Virus record (IMG/VR): IMGVR_UViG_2667527582_000002
Length of the DNA stretch: 17,422 nucleotides
Source: a virus
Taxonomy: Duplodnaviria; Heunggongvirae; Uroviricota; Caudoviricetes
Direction: 5' to 3' (one strand)
This document shows, piece after piece, positions 3,274-17,422 of this stretch. The translations under genes and the position numbers were made by a program. A model generated the notes under the pieces. That model was not told the origin of the DNA and did no database searches. It worked only from the letters and a program-made list of their open reading frames with translations. Each line of letters begins with the position of its first letter. Position 1 is the stretch's first letter.

Positions 3274-3480
3274 ATGCATAAAGATCAATACACTGATGCC
3301 CCCTCCCAGGAGCAGGTTCGTGTAAAAACTATGCTTAATAGCACCATTTCGATGGGTTACCCGGATGTTGTAATTGCATGTATAGAACATCAAGTGTCTC
3401 TGGAAGCATTCAGGGCAATTGAGGCCGCGTTAGTAAAGCACGATAAGAATACGAAGGATTATTCCCTGGTGGTTGACTGA
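3274..3480 (+). CDS. hypothetical small protein (68 aa), orphan moron ORF just upstream of cos
   Basis: ATG preceded by GGAG 8 nt upstream. The translation ([18 protein letters not shown]...) is not low-complexity. No recognisable motif. Confidence 0.4.
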
Positions 3481-3834
3481 TCACCATAACTGCTAACCAT
3501 TCTGACCATTTCACAAGTGACAGAGTCAATATCGTATTCTGTCACTGTCAGGCTAATACAGCAATGCAATTCAACTACAGCAATGCCTCGTATTTAGGTG
3601 AATTTACAATATCGTCCAGTTCGGATGCCGGCTGCATTTCTGAAGATAAGGCATTTCGGTTCTCGTATTTTCCCCTCATGCTCGTCAGTCCTGCGCGTAG
3701 TAAGAAACAGGACACTCACACTAATTTGTGTGGGCATGCTGTGATGTCCTTCTGAATTATCCCCATGCCATTATGTAAAGCTCTGTTTCAGATGCTCGTC
3801 ACGGTTGTCAGGCTGTCGGGTCCTCCCAGTGGGG

Positions 3835-3870: not shown

Positions 3871-4042
3871 CTAGTTTTTGCATTTCCATGGCGGCGGCAG
3901 CATGTTTGGTAATTTATTGATAATTAAAAGTTATTTCTCTTTTCAGCTGTACAATATTTTTTTCTCCCTGTCATTAGACTAGTTTGCAATTAATTGAAAT
4001 ATATAAATAAACCTGATTTTCACCTGCCAGATGGAGTTGCTT

Positions 4043-4570
4043 ATGTCAAATGTGAGCGGGATCGGTGATGCTTATTACTGGAGTGTTTTTAAAATCGCCG
4101 AGGCCTTTGGGCTTCACTGGGACACAGTAAAAAAACGGCTCCTCGCGGCCAACACTCCTGTGGCTGCGACTGTCAGGGGGAACCCCGTTTACGCCCTGCA
4201 GCATGTCGGGCCTGCCCTGTTTAGTGTGAAGCATGAGGCAGCAGACTCTGTTCATGATCCATCCCGTATGGAGCCGAAAGAGAGAAAGGACTGGTACCAG
4301 TCGGAAAATGAAAGGATCAAGCTGGAAAAGGAGCAGCGAAAACTCATCCCCGTTGATGAAGTAGTCATCGTCTATTCGTCCATGAGAAAGGCTGTCGTCC
4401 AGGTTCTGGAGACAATTCCGGATGTTCTTGAACGCGATTGCGCCCTGACTCCTCAGGCCGTTGGCGTTGTACAGCAGGCCATTGATGACCTGCGATACAC
4501 TCTTCAGGAAAAATCCTACGAGGCTTGTGCTGCTGAATTAATTCCTGATGAGGAAGGAGAGAGTCTCTAG
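4043..4570 (+). CDS. terminase small subunit (lambda Nu1-like; NohA/NohD-type)
   Basis: Lies immediately upstream of the large terminase and downstream of the cos-like sequence. Start at ATG 4043 with GGAG 6 nt upstream. The N-terminal HTH-type assignment and the Nu1 family call rest on position and recalled similarity, with no conserved motif checked. Confidence 0.75.
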   Translation: MSNVSGIGDAYYWSVFKIAEAFGLHWDTVKKRLLAANTPVAATVRGNPVYALQHVGPALFSVKHEAADSVHDPSRMEPKERKDWYQSENERIKLEKEQRKLIPVDEVVIVYSSMRKAVVQVLETIPDVLERDCALTPQAVGVVQQAIDDLRYTLQEKSYEACAAELIPDEEGESL

Positions 4571-4578
4571 GAGGAATA

Positions 4579-6678
4579 ATGGGTTTTTCATCAGCCCGAA
4601 ATTTGGGAAGGGACATATCGGCAGGATTTTCCCCACCACGTCGCATGCCGATTTCGGAGGCTGTTAAAAAATTCATGCGTGTTCCCAAGGGGGCTGGTAA
4701 CTCGGTGCCATGGGATCCTGAACTGACACCCTACATCATTGAGCCCATGAACTGCCTGGCATCGCGTGAATACGATGCGGTGATTTTTGTTGGTCCTGCG
4801 CGAACAGGGAAGACCATTGGTCTGATCGATGGATGGATTGTCTATACCATCGTTTGCGATCCTTCGGACATGCTCGTTGTGCAGATGACCGAAGATAAGG
4901 CCCGCGAGCATTCAAAAAAGCGCCTCGACAGAACGTTCAGAAGCAGTGCGGCGGTAAAGAAAAGAATGAGTCCACGTCGTAATGACAATAATGTCCATGA
5001 TAAGACGTTCAGGGATGGCTCGTTCCTTAAAATTGGTTGGCCCTCGGTCAACATTATGTCGTCGTCGGATTACCGGTTTGTCGCCTTAACCGATTACGAC
5101 CGTTTTCCGGAGAATATCGACAGCGAGGGTGATGGTTTCTCCCTGGCCTCAAAACGTACCACCACATTTATGTCCGCCGGGATGACTCTGGTGGAGAGCT
5201 CGCCGGGACGTGACATCTGCGACAGCAAATGGCGACGTAAGTCGCCTCATGAAGCGCCACCGACGACTGGTATTCTTTCCCTTTACAATCGTGGTGACCG
5301 CCGCCGCTGGTACTGGCCATGTCCGCACTGCGGTGAATATTTTCAGCCAGCCATGGATGCCATGACCGGCTACCGTAATGAACCGGATCCCTTTAAAGCC
5401 AGTGAGGCGGCGTATCTACTTTGCCCGCACTGCAGCGGCATTATCACGGCGGAGAAAAAGCGTGAGCTCAATAGTGCAGGAGTCTGGTTGCGTGAAGGTC
5501 AGGTCATTGATTGTAACGGCAACGTTTCCGGTGAACCGCGCCGCTCCCGTATCGCCAGTTTCTGGATGGAAGGGCCAGCTGCTGCGTATCAGACCTGGGC
5601 GCAACTGGTTTACAAATTACTGACTGCAGAACAGGAGTATGAAGCGACAGGAAGTGAAGAAACACTCAGGGCGGTTATCAACACCGACTGGGGATTACCT
5701 TATCTTCCCCGCGCCAGCATGGAGCAACGAAAAAGTGAACTGCTTGAGCAGCGGGCAGAGCCAGTTCCTTCCCGCAGTGTGCCGGATGGCGTTAATTTTC
5801 TTGTGGCGACAGTGGATGTGCAGGCGGGACGTCATCGCCGTTTTGTGGTTCAGGTAACGGGCTATGGCAGCCGTGGCGAACGCTGGATTATTGATCGTTA
5901 CAACATCACGCAGTCATTGCGCGGTGACAGCGACGGGGAGAGCCAGCGAATTGATCCGGCCAGCTATCCGGAAGACTGGGATGTCCTGCTGACGGATGTT
6001 TTTCATAAAAGCTGGCCGCTGGCCTCCGATCCTTCTCAACAAATGCGACTGATGGCAATGGCGGTGGACTCCGGCGGTGAAGACGGGGTCACTGATAATG
6101 CCTATAAATTCTGGCGTCGTTGCCGTCGTGATGGCCTTGGTAAACGTATTTACCTGTTTAAGGGCGACAGCATCCGGCGCGCAAAACTGATCACCCGTAC
6201 ATTCCCTGATAACACCGGACGAACGGGCCGACGGGCGCAGGCCGCAGGTGATGTGCCGCTCTGGCTTCTTCAGACGGATGCACTGAAAGACCGGGTGAAT
6301 AACGCGTTATGGCGTGACTCGCCAGGTCCCGGCTATGTGCATTTCCCTGACTGGCTGGGGAGCTGGTTTTACGACGAACTGACGTATGAAGAGCGGAGCA
6401 GTGACGGGAAATGGAGTAAGCCGGGTCGCGGTGCCAACGAAGCTTTTGACCTGATGGTGTATGCCGAGGCTCTGGTCATTCTGCATGGATACGAAAAGAT
6501 CCGCTGGCCGGATGCACCGGAGTGGGCGAGCCGGGAAACCTGGCTGGAGTGTGTCCCGGACAGTACCGAACCGTCATCCTCACCGGAACCGGTATCCACG
6601 CCTGTTAAAAAACAAAAACGGAAGAAAACAGTAACTGACGATGTTAACCCCTGGCTGACTTCCGGAGGATGGTTATGA
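4579..6678 (+). CDS. terminase large subunit (lambda gpA-like)
   Basis: 699 aa, AGGAGG 6 nt upstream of the ATG. Walker A motif VGPARTGKT, and a CPHCG motif as in lambda gpA. Position is between Nu1-like and W/portal genes. Confidence 0.92.
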   Translation: MGFSSARNLGRDISAGFSPPRRMPISEAVKKFMRVPKGAGNSVPWDPELTPYIIEPMNCLASREYDAVIFVGPARTGKTIGLIDGWIVYTIVCDPSDMLVVQMTEDKAREHSKKRLDRTFRSSAAVKKRMSPRRNDNNVHDKTFRDGSFLKIGWPSVNIMSSSDYRFVALTDYDRFPENIDSEGDGFSLASKRTTTFMSAGMTLVESSPGRDICDSKWRRKSPHEAPPTTGILSLYNRGDRRRWYWPCPHCGEYFQPAMDAMTGYRNEPDPFKASEAAYLLCPHCSGIITAEKKRELNSAGVWLREGQVIDCNGNVSGEPRRSRIASFWMEGPAAAYQTWAQLVYKLLTAEQEYEATGSEETLRAVINTDWGLPYLPRASMEQRKSELLEQRAEPVPSRSVPDGVNFLVATVDVQAGRHRRFVVQVTGYGSRGERWIIDRYNITQSLRGDSDGESQRIDPASYPEDWDVLLTDVFHKSWPLASDPSQQMRLMAMAVDSGGEDGVTDNAYKFWRRCRRDGLGKRIYLFKGDSIRRAKLITRTFPDNTGRTGRRAQAAGDVPLWLLQTDALKDRVNNALWRDSPGPGYVHFPDWLGSWFYDELTYEERSSDGKWSKPGRGANEAFDLMVYAEALVILHGYEKIRWPDAPEWASRETWLECVPDSTEPSSSPEPVSTPVKKQKRKKTVTDDVNPWLTSGGWL

Positions 6679-6887
6679 ACCAGAATGATATCGAAGCCAT
6701 GATTCAGCGTTATACGGAAGCTGAAATGGCGGTGCTGGACGGAAAATCCGTCACCTTTAATGGTCAGCAGATGACCATGGAAAACTTATCTGAGATCCGG
6801 CAGGGACGGCAGGAGTGGGAGCGCCGCCTTGCGGCTCTGATTACACGACGACGGGGGCATCCCGGGTATCGGCTGGCGAGGTTCTGA
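6675..6887 (+). CDS. head-tail joining protein (lambda gpW-like)
   Basis: 70 aa. Start ATG overlaps the terminase stop (ATGA), with GGAGG 6 nt upstream. C-terminus ITRRRGHPGYRLARF resembles the lambda W C-terminus (QRRRGPAGF). Confidence 0.7.
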   Translation: MNQNDIEAMIQRYTEAEMAVLDGKSVTFNGQQMTMENLSEIRQGRQEWERRLAALITRRRGHPGYRLARF

Positions 6888-8395
6888 TGGCAATTCTTGA
6901 TGATGTGATTGGCGTTTTTTCACCAGGATGGAAAGCGGCAAGGCTGCGTTCCCGTGCGGTGATCCAGGCTTATGAGGCCGTAAAAACGACGCGGACACAC
7001 AAAGCCCGACGGGAGAACCGAACTGCCGACCAGTTAAGCCAGTACGGGGCCGTGTCGTTACGTGAGCAGGCCCGTTACCTTGATAACAACCACGATCTGG
7101 TTATTGGTGTATTTGACAAGCTGGAAGAACGGGTGGTGGGGAAAAACGGGATTATTGTCGAGCCACATCCGGTATTACGCAATGGGGCCATTGCCCGTGA
7201 CCTGGCTGCGGAGATTCGCACCCGATGGAGTGAATGGTCTGTCAGCCCGGAAGTCACCGGGCAGTTTACCCGTCCGATGCTGGAACGTCTGATGCTTCGT
7301 ACCTGGCTGCGCGATGGTGAGGTGTTTGCCCAGATGGTTTCCGGGCGCATAAACAGCCTGACGCCTTCTGCCGGTGTTCATTTCTGGCTGGAGGCGCTCG
7401 AGCCGGACTTTATTCCCATGACCAGTGATGAGAGCAACAGGCTGAATCAGGGCGTGTTTGTTGATGACTGGGGGCGTCCCGAAAAATATCTGGTGTATAA
7501 AAGCCGTCCCGTATCCGGACGGCAGATGGAAACCAAAGAAGTGGATGCAGAGCGAATGCTGCATCTTAAATTTGTTCGCCGTCTGCACCAGATGCGCGGG
7601 ACGTCTTTATTGTCCGGTGTGCTGATCCGCCTCAGTGCTCTGAAAGAGTATGAAGATTCTGAGCTGACTGCAGCAAGGATCGCCGCTGCTCTGGGGATGT
7701 ACATCCGGAAAGGCGACGGGCAGAGCTATGAAGCGGATGGTAATGGCAGCAAGGATAAGGAACGCGAGCTTACCATTCAGCCAGGCATTATTTACGATGA
7801 TCTGAAACCCGGCGAAGAAATCGGAATGGTGAAGTCGGATCGCCCCAATCCTAACCTTGAAACTTTTCGTAATGGTCAGTTGCGTGCCGTGGCGGCGGGC
7901 AGTCGTCTGAGTTTTTCCAGTACAGCGCGCAACTATAACGGCACTTACAGCGCCCAGCGTCAGGAGCTGGTTGAATCCACTGATGGCTACCTGATCCTGC
8001 AGGACTGGTTTATTGGTGCCGTCACCCGTCCGATGTATCGTGCCTGGCTGAAACAGGCTGTGGCATCCGGTGTTATCAGGCTACCCCGCGATCTTGACCG
8101 TTCTTCACTGTATACCGCGGTGTATTCCGGACCGGTGATGCCGTGGATTGACCCTGTTAAGGAGGCTGAGGCCTGGAAAATCCAGATTCGTGGTGGAGCG
8201 GCGACAGAATCAGACTGGGTACGTGCTGGTGGTCGTAATCCGGATGATGTCAAACGTCGGCGCAAGGCCGAAATTGATGAAAACCGCAAGCTGGATCTGG
8301 TATTTGATACCGATCCGGCCAGTGATAAAGGAGGCAGCAGTGCCGCAACGAAACGACATGAGCCGCAGCACACCGACGACCAGTCCGAAGAATAA
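6887..8395 (+). CDS. portal protein (lambda gpB-like)
   Basis: 502 aa. ATG overlaps the W stop (TGATG). Size and position between W and the protease/capsid gene fit the lambda-type portal. The ORF-track extension to 6815 is upstream of the likely start. Confidence 0.88.
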   Translation: MAILDDVIGVFSPGWKAARLRSRAVIQAYEAVKTTRTHKARRENRTADQLSQYGAVSLREQARYLDNNHDLVIGVFDKLEERVVGKNGIIVEPHPVLRNGAIARDLAAEIRTRWSEWSVSPEVTGQFTRPMLERLMLRTWLRDGEVFAQMVSGRINSLTPSAGVHFWLEALEPDFIPMTSDESNRLNQGVFVDDWGRPEKYLVYKSRPVSGRQMETKEVDAERMLHLKFVRRLHQMRGTSLLSGVLIRLSALKEYEDSELTAARIAAALGMYIRKGDGQSYEADGNGSKDKERELTIQPGIIYDDLKPGEEIGMVKSDRPNPNLETFRNGQLRAVAAGSRLSFSSTARNYNGTYSAQRQELVESTDGYLILQDWFIGAVTRPMYRAWLKQAVASGVIRLPRDLDRSSLYTAVYSGPVMPWIDPVKEAEAWKIQIRGGAATESDWVRAGGRNPDDVKRRRKAEIDENRKLDLVFDTDPASDKGGSSAATKRHEPQHTDDQSEE

Positions 8396-10367
8396 TTCCT
8401 GGTTCAGGATGCAGGCTGGTCACCAGAGTGACGCGGATATTTATATTTATGACGAGATTGGTTTCTGGGGTGTTACAGCGAAGCAGTTTATCAGTGATCT
8501 GAATGCACTGGGCGATATCACCCACATTAATCTCCATATTAATTCACCGGGTGGCGATGTCTTTGAAGGCATCGCCATTTTTAATGCGCTGAAAACACAT
8601 GGTGCGTCCATTACCGTTTATGTCGACGGTGTGGCGGCGTCAATGGCGTCGGTCATTGCGATGGTGGGAAACCCGGTCATTATGCCGGAAAACACCTTCA
8701 TGATGATTCATAAACCATTTGGCTTTACGGGCGGTGATGCGGAGGACATGCGCACCTATGCCGACCTGCTCGATAAAGTTGAGGCGGTTCTGTTACCCGC
8801 TTATGCACAGAAAACCGGGAAAACCACCGATGAAATTGCTGCCATGCTGGCGGATGAGACCTGGATGTCCGGTGCCGAATGTCTGGCACATGGATTTGCT
8901 GATCAGGTAACGCCAGCCGTTAAGGCAATGGCATGTATTCAGTCAAAACGTACAGAGGAATTTAAAAAGATGCCGGAATCCATTCGAAACATGATTACTC
9001 CGCCACGCAACAGTGCTCCACGCGTACAGGATAATGAACCTGAAGCCTCCCGGACGCCAGTGCAGGCAGCAGCACCCGTGGTGGATGAAAACAGCATCCG
9101 TGCGCAGGTACTGGCAGAGCAAAAAGCGCGTGTAAACGGTATTAATGATCTGTTTGCCATGTTTGGCGGGCGTTATCAGACGCTGCAGGCTCAGTGTCTT
9201 GCCGATCCTGAATGTTCGCTGGAGCAGGCCCGCGAAAAGCTGTTGAACGAGATGGGGCGCGAGTCCACGCCATCCAATAAAAATACCCCGGCTCATATTT
9301 ATGCCGGTAACGGTAATTTTGTGGGGGACGGGATCCGCCAGGCGCTGATGGCGCGTGCCGGATTTGAAAAAACCGAACGTGATAATGTCTACAACGGGAT
9401 GACCCTGCGTGAATATGCCCGTATGTCACTGACTGAACGGGGTATTGGGGTTTCCAGTTATAACCCGATGCAGATGGTCGGTGCGGCGTTCACACACAGT
9501 ACGTCTGACTTCGGTAATATTCTGCTGGATGTTGCGAACAAAGCCATTCTGCAGGGCTGGGAAGATGCCCCTGAAACCTATGAACAGTGGACGCGGAAAG
9601 GTCAGTTGTCTGATTTTAAAATTGCCCATCGTGTGGGTATGGGTGGCTTCAGTGCTCTGCGTCAGGTGCGTGAAGGGGCGGAATATAAATACGTCACCAC
9701 CGGAGATAAACAGGCCACTATTGCACTGGCGACCTATGGCGAGCTGTTCAGTATCACCCGTCAGGCCATTATCAATGATGATCTGAATATGCTGACCGAT
9801 GTCCCGATGAAACTGGGCCGTGCGGCGAAATCCACTATTGCCGATCTGGTTTATGCCATTCTGACGTCTAACCCGAAAATCTCCACAGATAATGTAAGTC
9901 TGTTCGATAAAGCGAAACATGCAAACGTACTGGAGAGCGCTGCAATGGACGTGGCATCGCTGGATAAAGCCCGCCAGTTGATGCGCGTTCAGAAAGAGGG
10001 GGAGCGTCATCTGAATATTCGTCCTGCGTTCGTACTGGTACCGACGGCGATGGAGTCTGTTGCTAACCAGGTCATTCGCTCCTCAAGTGTCAAGGGGGCT
10101 GACATTAACGCCGGTATTATTAACCCGGTGAAAGATTTTGCGACCGTTATTGCAGAGCCTCGTCTTGATGATAACAGCCAGACCACCTTCTACCTGGCTG
10201 CGTCAAAAGGCTCCGATACGATTGAAGTGGCTTATCTCAACGGTGTGGATACGCCATATATTGATCAGATGGAGGGCTTCAGTGTGGATGGCGTGACAAC
10301 GAAAGTGCGTATTGACGCCGGTGTCGCGCCAGTTGATCACCGCGGTCTGGTGAAATGTACGGCGTAA
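8340..10367 (+). CDS. fused prohead protease (ClpP-like) / scaffold / major capsid protein
   Basis: Single uninterrupted frame. GTG 8340 (GGAGG 5 nt upstream) or ATG 8358 as start. The N-terminal ~200 aa carry a ClpP-like serine-protease signature (INSPGGDVFEGIAIFNAL...MASVIAMVG...MIHKP). A middle Ala/Gln/Glu-rich segment is scaffold-like. The C-terminal ~300 aa are assigned as the major capsid domain by size and position. Confidence 0.85.
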   Translation: MPQRNDMSRSTPTTSPKNNSWFRMQAGHQSDADIYIYDEIGFWGVTAKQFISDLNALGDITHINLHINSPGGDVFEGIAIFNALKTHGASITVYVDGVAASMASVIAMVGNPVIMPENTFMMIHKPFGFTGGDAEDMRTYADLLDKVEAVLLPAYAQKTGKTTDEIAAMLADETWMSGAECLAHGFADQVTPAVKAMACIQSKRTEEFKKMPESIRNMITPPRNSAPRVQDNEPEASRTPVQAAAPVVDENSIRAQVLAEQKARVNGINDLFAMFGGRYQTLQAQCLADPECSLEQAREKLLNEMGRESTPSNKNTPAHIYAGNGNFVGDGIRQALMARAGFEKTERDNVYNGMTLREYARMSLTERGIGVSSYNPMQMVGAAFTHSTSDFGNILLDVANKAILQGWEDAPETYEQWTRKGQLSDFKIAHRVGMGGFSALRQVREGAEYKYVTTGDKQATIALATYGELFSITRQAIINDDLNMLTDVPMKLGRAAKSTIADLVYAILTSNPKISTDNVSLFDKAKHANVLESAAMDVASLDKARQLMRVQKEGERHLNIRPAFVLVPTAMESVANQVIRSSSVKGADINAGIINPVKDFATVIAEPRLDDNSQTTFYLAASKGSDTIEVAYLNGVDTPYIDQMEGFSVDGVTTKVRIDAGVAPVDHRGLVKCTA

Positions 10368-10390: not shown

Positions 10391-10410
10391 GGCCCGTAAG
10401 GGCTTTTTTT
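10391..10410 (+). terminator. weak rho-independent terminator/attenuator after the capsid gene (GCCC-GUAA-GGGC + U7)
   Basis: 4-5-bp GC stem with a GNRA tetraloop followed by TTTTTTT. A second 7-bp GC hairpin (CAGCCCC-TGAAC-GGGGCTG) lies at 10422-10440. Confidence 0.4.
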
Positions 10411-10453
10411 GTACCTGAAATCAGCCCCTGAACGGGGCTGTGCGGAGACAGTT

Positions 10454-10777
10454 ATGGCAAAGAATTTTGTAGAAGAAGGAAAAACGGTGGCGATTGTTGC
10501 CAGTGCAGCCATCAGCAGCGGAGATCTGGTGCAGGTGGGTGATGTTTTTGCGGTGGCGCTGACCGATATTCCACAGGGTGAAACAGGCGACGGCATGACC
10601 GAAGGTGTGTTTATCCTGCCTAAACTGAAAACGGATGACATGAAAACGGGTAAGAAGGTTTATCTGAAGTCCGGAAAAGTTCAGCTGACTAACAGCGGCT
10701 CTGATCCGCTGGTCGGGGTTGTCTGGGCAGATGCCGGAACCAGTGCAGAAGAAGTGCCGGTAAAACTCAATGTCTGA
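10454..10777 (+). CDS. small head-associated protein (107 aa), possible decoration or head-completion protein (DUF2190-like, from memory)
   Basis: GGAG 6 nt upstream of the ATG. Gly/Val-rich small protein immediately after the capsid gene. No clear lambda gpD similarity. Confidence 0.55.
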   Translation: MAKNFVEEGKTVAIVASAAISSGDLVQVGDVFAVALTDIPQGETGDGMTEGVFILPKLKTDDMKTGKKVYLKSGKVQLTNSGSDPLVGVVWADAGTSAEEVPVKLNV

Positions 10778-11045
10778 TCCCTTTTCCCGGCTGGCAGCGC
10801 GTATGGATGCGATCACGGTCAGAAAGATGGGAAAGACAGCCTCGATTAATGATGTCGATATGGCTGTGATCCCGGGCGAAACACTGGCAGAGCTGAATGC
10901 TCTGTCCGGACCTGCGGTCTCTCTGGTGGTGTTTTCTTCGGGATACCGCCCACGGCGCGGGGATCGCGTTGTTTATGACGGACAACAATGGACGGTCACA
11001 CGGCATGAACGTTTTAACGGTAAGCCAATGATCTTTATTGAGTAA
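10770..11045 (+). CDS. head-tail connector / head completion protein (lambda gpFII-like)
   Basis: 91 aa. Start overlaps the upstream stop (ATGTCTGA). C-terminal motif PRRGDRVVYDGQQWTVTRHERFNG resembles lambda FII (LRRGDTLTIGEENFWVDRVSPDDGG). Confidence 0.55.
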   Translation: MSDPFSRLAARMDAITVRKMGKTASINDVDMAVIPGETLAELNALSGPAVSLVVFSSGYRPRRGDRVVYDGQQWTVTRHERFNGKPMIFIE

Positions 11046-12788: not shown

Positions 12789-12808
12789 CAGGACGATACT
12801 CATCATTT

Positions 12809-12832
12809 GCCCCGGTTATCCGGGGCTTTTTT
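12809..12832 (+). terminator. strong rho-independent terminator between the V-like and G-like genes (GCCCCGG-UUAU-CCGGGGC + U6)
   Basis: Perfect 7-bp GC stem, 4-nt loop, followed by TTTTTT. Confidence 0.7.
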
Positions 12833-12845
12833 GCAGGTGGAGAAC

Positions 12846-13235
12846 ATGATGTTTCTGAAACAGGGCACGTTTAATTATGAAAAGCAGTCCGTGGTGCTCA
12901 GTGAGCTGTCCGGGCTGCAGAGAATTGAATATCTGGCGTTTGTTCAGCAGCGAACGGCAAAGTTTGATGCCGAAGAGGGAGAACTGCCGGAGGCTGAACG
13001 ACAGATTGCTTTTCTGCGGATGGGGATGGATATCAATGCCTGGCTGGTTTCCCGCTCACTGTGGAATGCGGAACAGTCTCAGGATGTTGAGACGCTTTGC
13101 GCATCCGTTATTACAACATGGTCGTATGATGCCCTGGGAGCGGGGGCGGAGATGGTTCTGTCGCTGAGCGGTATGGGAGCCATTGAGAATGCCGGGGATT
13201 TGGAGCATGAGGTGCTGACGCCGGAAAAGTCCTGA
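12846..13235 (+). CDS. tail assembly chaperone (lambda gpG-like)
   Basis: 129 aa. MMFLK...SELSGLQRIEYLAF... parallels lambda G (MFLK...SELSALQRIEHLAL). Ends at TGA 13233-13235 just after a slippery sequence. Confidence 0.8.
   Translation: MMFLKQGTFNYEKQSVVLSELSGLQRIEYLAFVQQRTAKFDAEEGELPEAERQIAFLRMGMDINAWLVSRSLWNAEQSQDVETLCASVITTWSYDALGAGAEMVLSLSGMGAIENAGDLEHEVLTPEKS
13223..13229 (+). promoter_or_regulatory. putative -1 programmed ribosomal frameshift site (G GAA AAG) producing a G-T fusion
   Basis: Heptamer GGAAAAG in the G frame, 4 nt before the G stop. The -1 frame (T frame) is open from 13211 through 13573. Same position as the lambda G/GT slip site (GGGAAAG). Confidence 0.5.
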
Positions 13236-13573
13236 CGCGGGAAATGCAGTTTGTCATGCGGCTTGCCCGGGAGTTCAGGCGGGCAGACTGGCGGCGGATG
13301 CTGTCGGAAATGTCGGCCACTGAGCTTGGTGAGTGGGGCGATTATTTCCGGATGCAGAGCTTCAGTGATGTGTGGATGGATGCGCAGTTTGCCTCGCTGA
13401 AGGCATTGATCGTGAGAATGGTGTCCGGCAGCAGTGATGCTGCGGTGGCTGATTTCAGCCTTTTACCGGAAGAGAACGGGATACCGGAGCGAACGGACGA
13501 AGAACTGATGCATCTTGGGGAAGGTATTTCCGGAGGTGTGCGTTATGGACCAGATAGCCAACCTGGTCATTGA
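13223..13573 (+). CDS. T-frame portion of the tail assembly chaperone G-T fusion (lambda gpGT-like), in the -1 frame relative to G
   Basis: ORF in the -1 frame relative to G, open upstream past the G stop. Probably expressed only as a G-T fusion (12846..13573 with a -1 shift near 13226-13229). Lies directly upstream of the tape measure gene. Confidence 0.65.
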   Translation, partial: GKVLTREMQFVMRLAREFRRADWRRMLSEMSATELGEWGDYFRMQSFSDVWMDAQFASLKALIVRMVSGSSDAAVADFSLLPEENGIPERTDEELMHLGEGISGGVRYGPDSQPGH

Positions 13574-16948: not shown

Positions 16949-17312
16949 ATGCAGGATATTCCACAGGAAACACATCATGAGACGACACGCCTCACTCAGT
17001 CAGCCCAGGTGGTGCTCTGGGAAATCGATCTGACAGTGGTCGGTGGAGAACGTTATTTTTTCTGTAATGAGCAGAACGAAAAAGGTGAGCCGATCACCTG
17101 GCAGGGGCGACAGTATCAGGCGTATCCCATTCAGGGGACGGGATTTGAACTGAACGGCAAGGGCAGTGCTGCCCGTCCGACACTGACGGTTTCTAACCTG
17201 CACGGCATGGTCACCGCGATGGCGGAAGACCTGCAGAGTCTGGTCGGAGGAACGGTGGTCCGGCGTAAGGTTTACGCCCGTTTTCTGGATGCGGTGAACT
17301 TCGTCAACGGAA
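16949..17312 (+). CDS. minor tail protein (lambda gpL-like), 5' portion interrupted by an N-run
   Basis: AGGAG upstream. MQDI.QET...VVLWEIDLT.VGGERYFFCNEQNEKGEP.TWQGRQYQ.YPIQG.GFELNGKG...RPTLTVSNL.GMVT.MAED.QSLVGGTVVRRKVYARFLDAVNFVNG is near-identical to lambda L residues 1-121. The reading frame runs into the N-run at 17313. Confidence 0.88.
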
Positions 17313-17322
17313 NNNNNNNNNN
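17313..17322. other. assembly gap (10 x N)
   Basis: Run of ten N characters. The sequence after it does not continue the gpL-like protein. Confidence 0.95.
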
Positions 17323-17422
17323 GCCGATGTCACTTTCTTGTGTAATACAGTGGTATTCGATGGGGAAGAACTTCACGCGAGCTATTATCAGTCGTTATTA
17401 TCTCAGGTACGGGATATGGTAG

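Follow-up and report, generated by a model that had tools for sequence, protein, structure and literature searches.

A single gene for a ClpP-like protease, a scaffold-like segment and an HK97-fold capsid domain in a Gifsy-2-type morphogenetic region

The locus considered here raises two questions: whether a single reading frame encodes the protease, the scaffold and the major capsid protein of a phage head, and whether such a gene marks a head module of foreign type inserted among lambda-like neighbours. Both had been answered positively by the original prediction, which proposed one polypeptide in place of the lambda C-Nu3-D-E genes. We analysed a window of 17,422 nucleotides, that is, the whole stretch of DNA containing this frame. 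The features found are listed in Table 1.

The frame of about 2 kb is indeed a single one, with 675 codons and zero internal stops on the direct strand at 8340-10367. Its GTG start is preceded by the Shine-Dalgarno sequence AAAGGAGG, whose predicted duplex with the 3' end of 16S rRNA (-11.6 kcal/mol) is the top one among the in-frame start candidates of the gene. A terminator-like hairpin was found just past the stop codon, and the record of phage Ayreon has a terminator annotated at the equivalent position. Antisense ORFs within the region (e.g. 9426-10010, 194 aa) matched no family and were rejected as spurious.

Table 1. Coordinates of the fusion gene, its domains and predicted signals, and the flanking head genes in the window
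Feature	Coordinates	Strand	Residues, size, evidence
Portal gene	6887..8395	+	Pfam Phage_portal_2, TIGR01539 portal_lambda; 3' end overlaps the fusion gene by 56 nt
Shine-Dalgarno sequence AAAGGAGG	8327..8334	+	ends 5 nt before the GTG start at 8340; read from the sequence
Fusion gene: ClpP-like prohead protease, scaffold-like segment and major capsid protein	8340..10367	+	675 aa, 73.6 kDa
ClpP-type (S14-like) protease domain	8430..8912	+	residues 31-191; Pfam CLP_protease, E 2.8e-36
Ser101 codon, predicted catalytic nucleophile (GVAASMAS)	8640..8642	+	aligned with the ClpP active-site Ser
His124 codon, predicted catalytic His (MIHKP)	8709..8711	+	motif aligned with ClpP MIHQP
Glu173 codon, at the position of the ClpP catalytic Asp	8856..8858	+	alignment to 1y7o
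Length-variable Pro/Ala/Thr/Gln-rich linker	8985..9083	+	residues about 216-248; composition, indels
Scaffold-like three-helix segment	9084..9260	+	residues 249-307; AF2 model
Flexible indel-bearing junction, candidate maturation cleavage region	9261..9317	+	residues 308-326; model and alignment
Major capsid protein domain, HK97 fold (model)	9318..10364	+	residues 327-675
Pfam Phage_capsid_4 core of the capsid domain	9468..10355	+	residues 377-672, E 1.8e-54
Terminator-like hairpin GGCCC-GTAA-GGGCT and T-run, just past the fusion gene stop codon	10391..10414	+	consensus scan
Head decoration (cement) protein gene	10454..10777	+	Pfam Phage_cement_2, E 2e-20; PHROG 122 'head decoration', E 2.3e-46

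The N-terminal domain is of the ClpP type. Both motifs on which this assignment had been based were found: residues 67-72 (nt 8538-8555) read INSPGG, and residues 122-126 (nt 8703-8717) read MIHKP. The domain matches solved ClpP chains with E-values down to 4e-16. No other protease families were observed among the Pfam hits. The predicted catalytic positions are strongly conserved: Ser101 and His124 are retained in all of the 131 diverse homologues (131/131 each), and the column of Glu173 is acidic in 125 (Glu in 115, Asp in 10). The residue aligned with Glu173 in 1y7o is presumably the catalytic Asp (Asp171 in the numbering of E. coli ClpP).

Similarity to ClpP could also mean a cellular-type enzyme that partners the ClpX or ClpA unfoldases and has no part in head maturation. 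Cellular ClpP subunits are the best solved-structure matches of the domain and dominated the PDB profile search with the full-length alignment, and some databases call the protein 'Clp protease ClpP'. However, all three equivalog models of cellular ClpP score far under their cutoffs (TIGR00493, 59.6 vs 308.6; NF001368, 79.6 vs 249; NF011091, 59.5 vs 361), whereas NF045542, a model specific to phages and named 'head maturation protease, ClpP-related', is matched with 215.7 bits, above its cutoff of 120. Besides, the same polypeptide chain contains a capsid protein, and the domain is placed between portal and decoration genes. Thus a cellular role is extremely improbable.

The fold of the C-terminal part was decided by structure comparison, since sequence searches gave either ClpP chains or weak matches; in particular, a single-sequence PDB search with this part produced only weak matches of the Mu gpT type. 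A full-length AlphaFold model was discarded, as it was built from a shallow alignment of 30 sequences and had a mean pLDDT of 43, with the capsid domain below 50. The model used instead covers residues 250-675 and was built from 132 diverse homologues. In this model the C-terminal domain is confidently predicted to have the HK97 fold, in agreement with the Phage_capsid_4 match and with the capsid-sized domain initially proposed; the opposite outcome that had been envisaged, a C-terminal part lacking any capsid-like fold, is not what the model predicts. The capsid proteins of Pseudomonas phage JBD30 and of the Mu gpT type (PDB 8rkc) differ from the present one in that each is a chain of its own, about 300 aa long, with no protease fused to it.

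The middle of the polypeptide had been described as rich in Ala, Gln and Glu. This is correct, and two parts can be distinguished, a Pro/Glu/Ala-rich linker (206-248) and an Ala/Leu/Glu/Gln-rich helical stretch (249-307). The linker contains indels of up to about 15 residues even between relatives that are 91-96% identical, and its pLDDT in the full-length model is below 50. The helical stretch is modelled as three helices, 251-273, 280-288 and 294-306, each with pLDDT above 90. In hhalign, residues 249-307 are aligned with the portion of lambda gpC that constitutes the scaffold Nu3 (probability 84-85% with a single lambda sequence), which points to a possible scaffold role. The following junction, residues 308-326, is the least confident stretch of the C-terminal model (mean pLDDT 64 and 72 in 10-residue blocks). 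It contains alignment indels and is followed by an invariant NGN..GD motif. The junction is a candidate region for the maturation cleavage.

Could the fusion have been created by a sequencing error, that is, by a lost stop codon or a frameshift that joined separate protease/scaffold and capsid genes? Artefactual fusions do occur nearby, as singleton predicted proteins of 1158-1159 aa combine the portal and the fusion protein. However, an uninterrupted ORF (coverage at least 80%) is present in 2017 complete E. coli genomes, with 1497 records at at least 99% identity, and in 28 independently sequenced phage records; homologues from many genera reach down to 32-36% identity; and a curated full-length HMM exists (NF045540). 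An artefact, which the original prediction had named as the outcome that would undo it, is thus excluded, with practically no probability left to it.

In all, 2125 of the 5426 complete E. coli genomes (about 40%) contain the gene. Sixteen phage records, among them Ayreon, mEp460, cdtI, Tritos and HannyBb, carry it with a DNA identity of at least 98.5%. The Ayreon gene is 99.7% identical, and the record of this phage lists E. coli K12 as the host. The homologue in Pseudomonas phage F10 has 693 aa and 56.6% protein identity. Both domains are present in 126 of the 130 top-ranking representatives of clusters formed at 50% identity.

The protein scores 985.9 bits with NF045540 (scaf_prot_MCP1; cutoff 475), residues 32-674 covering profile positions 2-651 of 652, and matches PHROG 133 across its full length. 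With its sister family NF045541, 'prohead protease/major capsid protein fusion protein', only residues 223-672 align, and the score remains under the cutoff (400.6 vs 525 bits). An identical gene is named 'ClpP-like prohead protease/major capsid protein fusion protein' in RefSeq, and it is under this name that the 2125 E. coli genomes carry the gene. There is no essential difference from other members of NF045540 and PHROG 133, which include those of the five E. coli phages named above and of the Pseudomonas phages F10 and MD8; a very common gene is represented here by a further allele.

The gene context is that of Gifsy-2. The genes are contiguous and all assigned from the small terminase (4031) past tail protein Z (11057) to 11635, and thus there is no separate scaffold or major capsid gene between 4031 and 11057, as had been predicted. 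The fusion protein is 70% identical over 669 aa to the product of the Gifsy-2 gene with locus tag STM1034.3n.Gifsy2, which likewise contains a ClpP-like protease, a central part of ~100-200 residues and a capsid protein in one ORF (696 vs 675 aa). Both regions have the same order: small terminase, large terminase, a small protein, portal, fusion gene, decoration protein, an FII-like protein and lambda-like tail genes. The decoration protein is 60% identical to Gifsy-2 STM1034, and the portal 64% identical to that of Gifsy-2. The differences are the host, Salmonella for Gifsy-2 and E. coli here, and the linker between the protease and the scaffold-like segment, which is unlike in length and sequence.

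The similarity to lambda is much lower. The terminase and the portal were expected to be lambda-like, and at the level of Pfam families they are; however, they are only 24% identical to gpA and 22% identical to gpB, respectively. Since, in addition, the genes from the small terminase to gpM are syntenic with Gifsy-2 at 39-73% identity, the region is assigned by sequence comparison to the Gifsy-2/mEp460 type and is not lambda with an exchanged head cassette. The proposed mosaic of a lambda-like backbone and a different head module therefore has to be abandoned. A search for the lambda or mEp213-type cos sequence (GGGCGGCGNNCT) gave nothing above chance.

The comparison of the head genes themselves is less uniform. 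The hhalign comparison places residues 60-333 in weak collinearity with lambda gpC, the Nu3 part included (probability 84-85%, E about 6e-6); BLASTP of the fusion protein against gpC gives no significant match (E 0.12). Lambda gpE is not matched at the sequence level (hhalign probability 0.2%). The decoration protein has no BLAST match to lambda gpD, its Pfam family being Phage_cement_2, and a sequence search detected no relative of it with a solved structure. In RefSeq lambda gpC is an S49 peptidase, whereas the protease of the fusion gene scores as ClpP/S14-like. In lambda the capsid protein E is encoded by a separate gene and D precedes E, whereas here the decoration gene follows the capsid domain. 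Thus the suggested replacement of C-Nu3-D-E holds in so far as one polypeptide combines protease, scaffold-like and capsid parts, but not every lambda head function resides in the single frame, because the cement gene at 10454-10777 is separate. The weak collinearity of residues 60-333 with gpC/Nu3 also speaks against a replacement of all four genes.

HK97 provides another parallel. In gp5 of this phage a scaffold (delta) segment is N-terminal to the HK97-fold capsid protein, and the fusion protein has its scaffold-like segment in the same arrangement. However, the HK97 protease gp4, which we take to be a member of the herpesvirus-protease-like S78/U35 family, is encoded by a separate gene, whereas here the protease is ClpP-like and covalently fused. 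HK97 also forms a covalent chainmail (PMC8538268), whereas a cement protein is present here.

Very probably the frame is a tripartite capsid gene like that of Gifsy-2, belonging to a lambdoid prophage or phage of E. coli from the mEp460/cdtI/Ayreon group, and it would function in the following way. Translation from the GTG at 8340 would yield a single 73.6-kDa polypeptide. Its HK97-fold domain (about 327-675) would form the shell, and the helical middle (about 249-307, Nu3-related) would serve as a tethered internal scaffold similar to the HK97 delta domain. In this way the N-terminal ClpP-like serine protease (Ser101, His124, Glu173) would be brought into the procapsid. Once assembly is complete, it would degrade the scaffold segment and the linker as well as itself, and the mature capsid protein that is left would have roughly 32-39 kDa. 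DNA packaging would then lead to expansion of the shell, which the separately encoded cement protein would stabilise. Autoproteolytic maturation is expected from the conserved catalytic residues and from the accounts of Gifsy-2 and MD8; the suggested order of assembly and the candidate position of the cleavage site follow the precedents of Gifsy-2, HK97 and lambda.

The collinearity with lambda gpC allows for a different mode of expression, as Nu3 arises from an internal start in gpC. In that case an internal start, e.g. Met211 (nt 8970), would produce a protease-less scaffold-capsid protein constituting most of the shell, and the protease would be carried by a minority of subunits, which might ease the packing of about 415 protease domains into a T=7 procapsid. 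Met211 is invariant in 30 enterobacterial and Pseudomonas homologues (alignment A1), but its column contains Met in only 20 of the 131 diverse homologues, and in the part separating protease and capsid domains Met does not reach 70% in any other column; accordingly, no conserved internal Nu3-like start was found there. The codon is preceded by a weak SD-like GAGGA (-6.0 kcal/mol; AGGAG in phage F10, -6.9 kcal/mol). However, several Met codons that are clearly internal have energies at least as good, and the bases are the Glu codons of a conserved E-E-F motif. The nested gene was rejected on these SD energies and Met columns, and such expression is quite improbable.

Just past the protease domain there is a strongly conserved motif F/Y208-x3-P212. 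Two products, the full-length protein and a protease-less scaffold-capsid protein, might be formed either by early self-cleavage at this motif or by internal initiation; taken together, this is improbable. If it were true, the dose of protease per procapsid would be subject to regulation instead of simply equalling the number of subunits, and the gpC/Nu3 collinearity would make this family an evolutionary link that connects the protease-scaffold arrangement of the lambda type with the scaffold-capsid arrangement of the HK97 type.

The full-length tripartite gene, as preferred above, may reside in a prophage copy. The window also contains the Qin-like cargo genes cspI, ynfQ, ynfN and gnsB, typical of resident prophages, and in strain PCN061 the terminase gene of a near-identical region contains an IS element. 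As many E. coli lambdoid prophages are defective, one could consider a decaying relic that no longer makes a functional head. However, every morphogenetic gene of the window from the small terminase to gpL is intact and contiguous, the fusion gene is almost identical to that of phage Ayreon, and all catalytic and nearly invariant residues are kept. A relic is thus very unlikely.

Effantin et al. (2010, Virology 402:355) reportedly described the tripartite capsid gene of Gifsy-2 together with cryo-EM of this phage. The present allele is known from sequence and models. Gifsy-2 is listed as having a T=7 capsid (PMC8814770), with a trimeric cement protein at the 3-fold axes (PMC8538268). For gp5 of Pseudomonas phage MD8 (693 aa) it has been argued that protease, scaffold and capsid protein are one gene (PMC8508860; 2021); this protein equals in length the homologue of F10, the phage with which our sequence comparison was made. 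Protease-scaffold-capsid fusions are described as a common feature among small actinophages (PMC7302621).

The fusion architecture is therefore already known, and the gene is not novel, as the family has been curated, named and published. With NCBI and PHROG families, a cryo-EM study and a bioinformatic description in existence, it matters little as a discovery, and the analysis is useful mainly for annotation, since several public names conceal that the product is a capsid protein. In public records the same gene appears as 'Clp protease ClpP', 'head-tail preconnector protease C', 'Nu3', 'protease/scaffold protein' and 'major head protein'.

The protease, the scaffold-like segment and the major capsid protein are encoded in a single open frame of 675 codons without internal stops. 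The original prediction of this one-frame arrangement was thus a correct observation, and its functional reading is essentially right. As a mechanical ORF, the frame is open upstream as far as 8148. The likely start codon is GTG 8340, preceded at a distance of 5 nt by AAAGGAGG (8327-8334); the anti-Shine-Dalgarno pairing at this codon, -11.6 kcal/mol, is far ahead of all other in-frame start candidates, and the identical gene in RefSeq has the same start. The neighbouring genes are contiguous and every one is assigned, which leaves no space for the scaffold or the capsid protein to have a gene of its own. No family matches were obtained for antisense ORFs inside the region.

Features of the window, with percent identity of the products to their counterparts in phages lambda and Gifsy-2
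Feature	Position	Strand	Lambda	Gifsy-2
Lysozyme	528-1061
DUF2514 Rz-like	1058-1555
Cargo genes cspI, ynfQ, ynfN, gnsB	1916-2980
Small ORF	3274-3480
Small ORF	3564-3755
DUF1441 small-terminase-like protein	4031-4570
Large terminase, gpA-family	4579-6678		gpA 24%	73%
Small W-like protein	6669-6887
Portal, lambda-family	6887-8395		gpB 22%	64%
Fusion gene	8340-10367	+	no significant BLAST match	70%
F/Y208-x3-P212 motif	8961-8975
Linker	8985-9083
Terminator-like hairpin	10391-10414
Cement/decoration protein	10454-10777		gpD: no match	60%
Gifsy-2/FII-like head-tail protein	10770-11045
Tail genes matching lambda Z, U, V, G, T, H, M, L	after head-tail protein gene
Tail chaperone G	12807-13235
Tail chaperone T	13244-13573
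Tail H			25%	64%
Tail L			78%

The 3' end of the portal gene and the start of the fusion gene overlap by 56 nt (8340-8395) in different frames. In some database proteins of 1158-1159 aa (P0005, P0008-P0014, P0016, P0017), a single chain runs from the portal through the ClpP-like protease to the capsid part. Since each of these has only one member sequence, they probably stem from frameshift errors in this overlap. Between the fusion gene and the decoration gene there is a terminator-like hairpin, GGCCC-GTAA-GGGCT, followed by a T-run, and a terminator is annotated at the equivalent place in the Ayreon record. This hairpin is odd, as similar amounts of decoration and capsid protein should be required.

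The N-terminal domain extends approximately over residues 20-205 (numbering from the 8340 start; residues 1-205 amount to 22 kDa) and matches the Pfam family CLP_protease (residues 31-191, E 2.8e-36). Both motifs that had been named earlier, INSPGG and MIHKP, were found, at residues 67-72 and 122-126, respectively. Ser101 (GVAASMAS) and His124 (MIHKP) are each retained in all 131 diverse homologues. When aligned with solved ClpP chains, the protein has Glu173 (codon 8856-8858) at the position of the Asp that we take to be catalytic in ClpP; of the 131 homologues, 115 have Glu here and 10 have Asp. This pattern points to Ser-His-Glu as the triad of this family of phage proteases. The domain passes the NF045542 model "head maturation protease, ClpP-related" (215.7 bits, cutoff 120) and misses every cellular ClpP model by far (e.g. 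TIGR00493, 59.6 against 308.6). It is ClpP-like, but it is not ClpP itself.

Right after the protease domain comes the motif F/Y208-x3-P212, with Pro212 in 126 and Phe or Tyr at position 208 in 115 of the 131 homologues. Possible roles of this motif are those of a hinge, a docking element or a site of self-cleavage. The following linker (residues ~216-248), rich in Pro, Ala, Thr and Gln, shifts in length by up to ~15 residues between proteins otherwise 91-96% identical, and is a local indel hotspot within an essential structural gene. In the scaffold-like segment, residues 251-306 of the AlphaFold model, three helices are predicted with confidence; then follow a junction loop (residues 308-326) of lower model confidence, carrying indels, and an invariant NGN..GD motif. 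A Nu3-like internal start could produce a scaffold-capsid protein without the protease, and Met211 is preceded by a weak SD-like sequence both here and in Pseudomonas phage F10. However, Met211 is shared by just 20 of the 131 homologues, and the alignment has no other conserved Met between the protease and capsid domains; therefore the internal-start variant is unsupported in general and unlikely in this clade.

The capsid domain is everything past the junction, up to residue 675. Its Pfam matches are Phage_capsid_4 (residues 377-672, E 1.8e-54) and, nested within that one, a weaker Mu-like_gpT. The AlphaFold model of residues 250-675, built on an alignment of 132 diverse homologues, has mean pLDDT 92.7 and pTM 0.78; a full-length model from 30 closely related sequences had pLDDT 43. 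Foldseek comparison of the model of residues 250-675 with PDB yielded 362 matches at E <= 0.001. The 50 matches listed, all with probability 1.00, include HK97 Head II, T5 pb8 and phage D3; every one of the 50 is an HK97-fold capsid protein of a phage, an encapsulin or an engineered cage. The HK97 fold proposed for the C-terminal part is thus supported.

In profile comparison, residues 60-333 are collinear with residues 123-432 of the 439 residues of lambda gpC, spanning its protease core and Nu3 scaffold part nearly to the C-terminus; this is a moderate match to a single lambda sequence (probability 84-85%, E ~ 6e-6, two different alignments). The same comparison with lambda gpE produced no match. 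Therefore the N-terminal half looks like a distant gpC/Nu3 homologue, to which a capsid protein from the Mu gpT sequence family is fused directly. An HHpred match with 99.9% probability was reported between the lambda protease-scaffold protein and gp5 of Pseudomonas phage MD8 (PMC8508860). The latter equals the F10 homologue in length.

The head module had been considered a foreign cassette between lambda-like terminase and portal genes. This is refuted by the low identity of these two proteins to lambda (24% and 22%) and by the synteny with Gifsy-2, where all genes from the small terminase through gpM are matched in unchanged order, with 39-73% identity. Therefore, judging by gene order and similarity, the morphogenetic region is of the Gifsy-2/mEp460/cdtI type throughout. 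The Gifsy-2 capsid has T=7 (PMC8814770).

Megablast found the fusion gene in 2125 of 5426 complete E. coli genomes, with coverage of at least 80% in 2017 of them; 1497 E. coli records have at least 99% identity. RefSeq annotates the E. coli copies as intact CDS, [quoted passage not shown]. Sixteen phage records are 98.5-99.9% identical, including Ayreon (host E. coli K12), mEp460, cdtI, Tritos, HannyBb and phi458, and Stx-converting phages, VT1-Sakai among them, are ~78% identical. By tblastn, 80 phage records have coverage of at least 80%, among them F10 with 56.6% identity. Among 1.84 billion cluster representatives, 7017 proteins were found at E <= 1e-30, and 126 of the best 130 (600-800 aa) contain both the protease and the capsid parts, down to ~32% identity. 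Thus, as far as these comparisons reach, the fusion forms a large, old and diverse family. A sequencing artefact joining separate genes was rejected given the intact copies in E. coli genomes, the phage records, and the homologues down to ~32% identity. There are two curated NCBIfam families of such fusions, NF045540 and NF045541, and two PHROGs families, 133 and 4523; "protease-scaffold-capsid fusion" is a common feature in small actinophages (PMC7302621). The fusion gene is already known, being a textbook member of a curated, experimentally studied family, extremely common in E. coli.

One polypeptide thus carries a protease with Ser-His-acidic residues, apparently active, a tethered helical segment and an HK97-fold shell domain; the cement protein is separate. 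By the precedents of HK97, lambda and Gifsy-2, from which we infer assembly, degradation, cleavage and expansion, the capsid domains would assemble on the portal, and the attached scaffold and protease would point inward. The protease would then digest its own domain together with the linker and the scaffold segment, and the last cut would probably fall somewhere in residues ~308-370. The mature capsid protein would then be of ~32-39 kDa (residues 314-675 amount to 39.4 kDa, the Pfam core to 32.2 kDa). Packaging would lead to shell expansion, and the cement protein would then lock the shell.

The lysis genes are separated from the terminase genes by Qin-prophage-type cargo genes, of which gnsB is toxin-like. 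Pfam has no match for either of the two small ORFs that precede the terminase genes. A lambda-type cos sequence, which would mark the packaging site, was sought throughout the window and not found. The tail chaperone genes G and T are in the 0 and -1 frames, like the lambda G/GT programmed frameshift. A search of G for the canonical slippery heptamer GGGAAAG was negative; directly past the G stop, at 13239, there is a GGGAAAT. In E. coli genomes, the best matches to the whole window end at 17312, within the gpL-like gene, which suggests a recombination joint in the final 110 bases (17313-17422). In E. coli PCN061 (NZ_CP006636.1), the region, otherwise 99.1% identical, contains two large-terminase CDS and an IS66-like ISEc23 transposase, suggesting that this copy of the same prophage type was inactivated by an insertion in the terminase gene.
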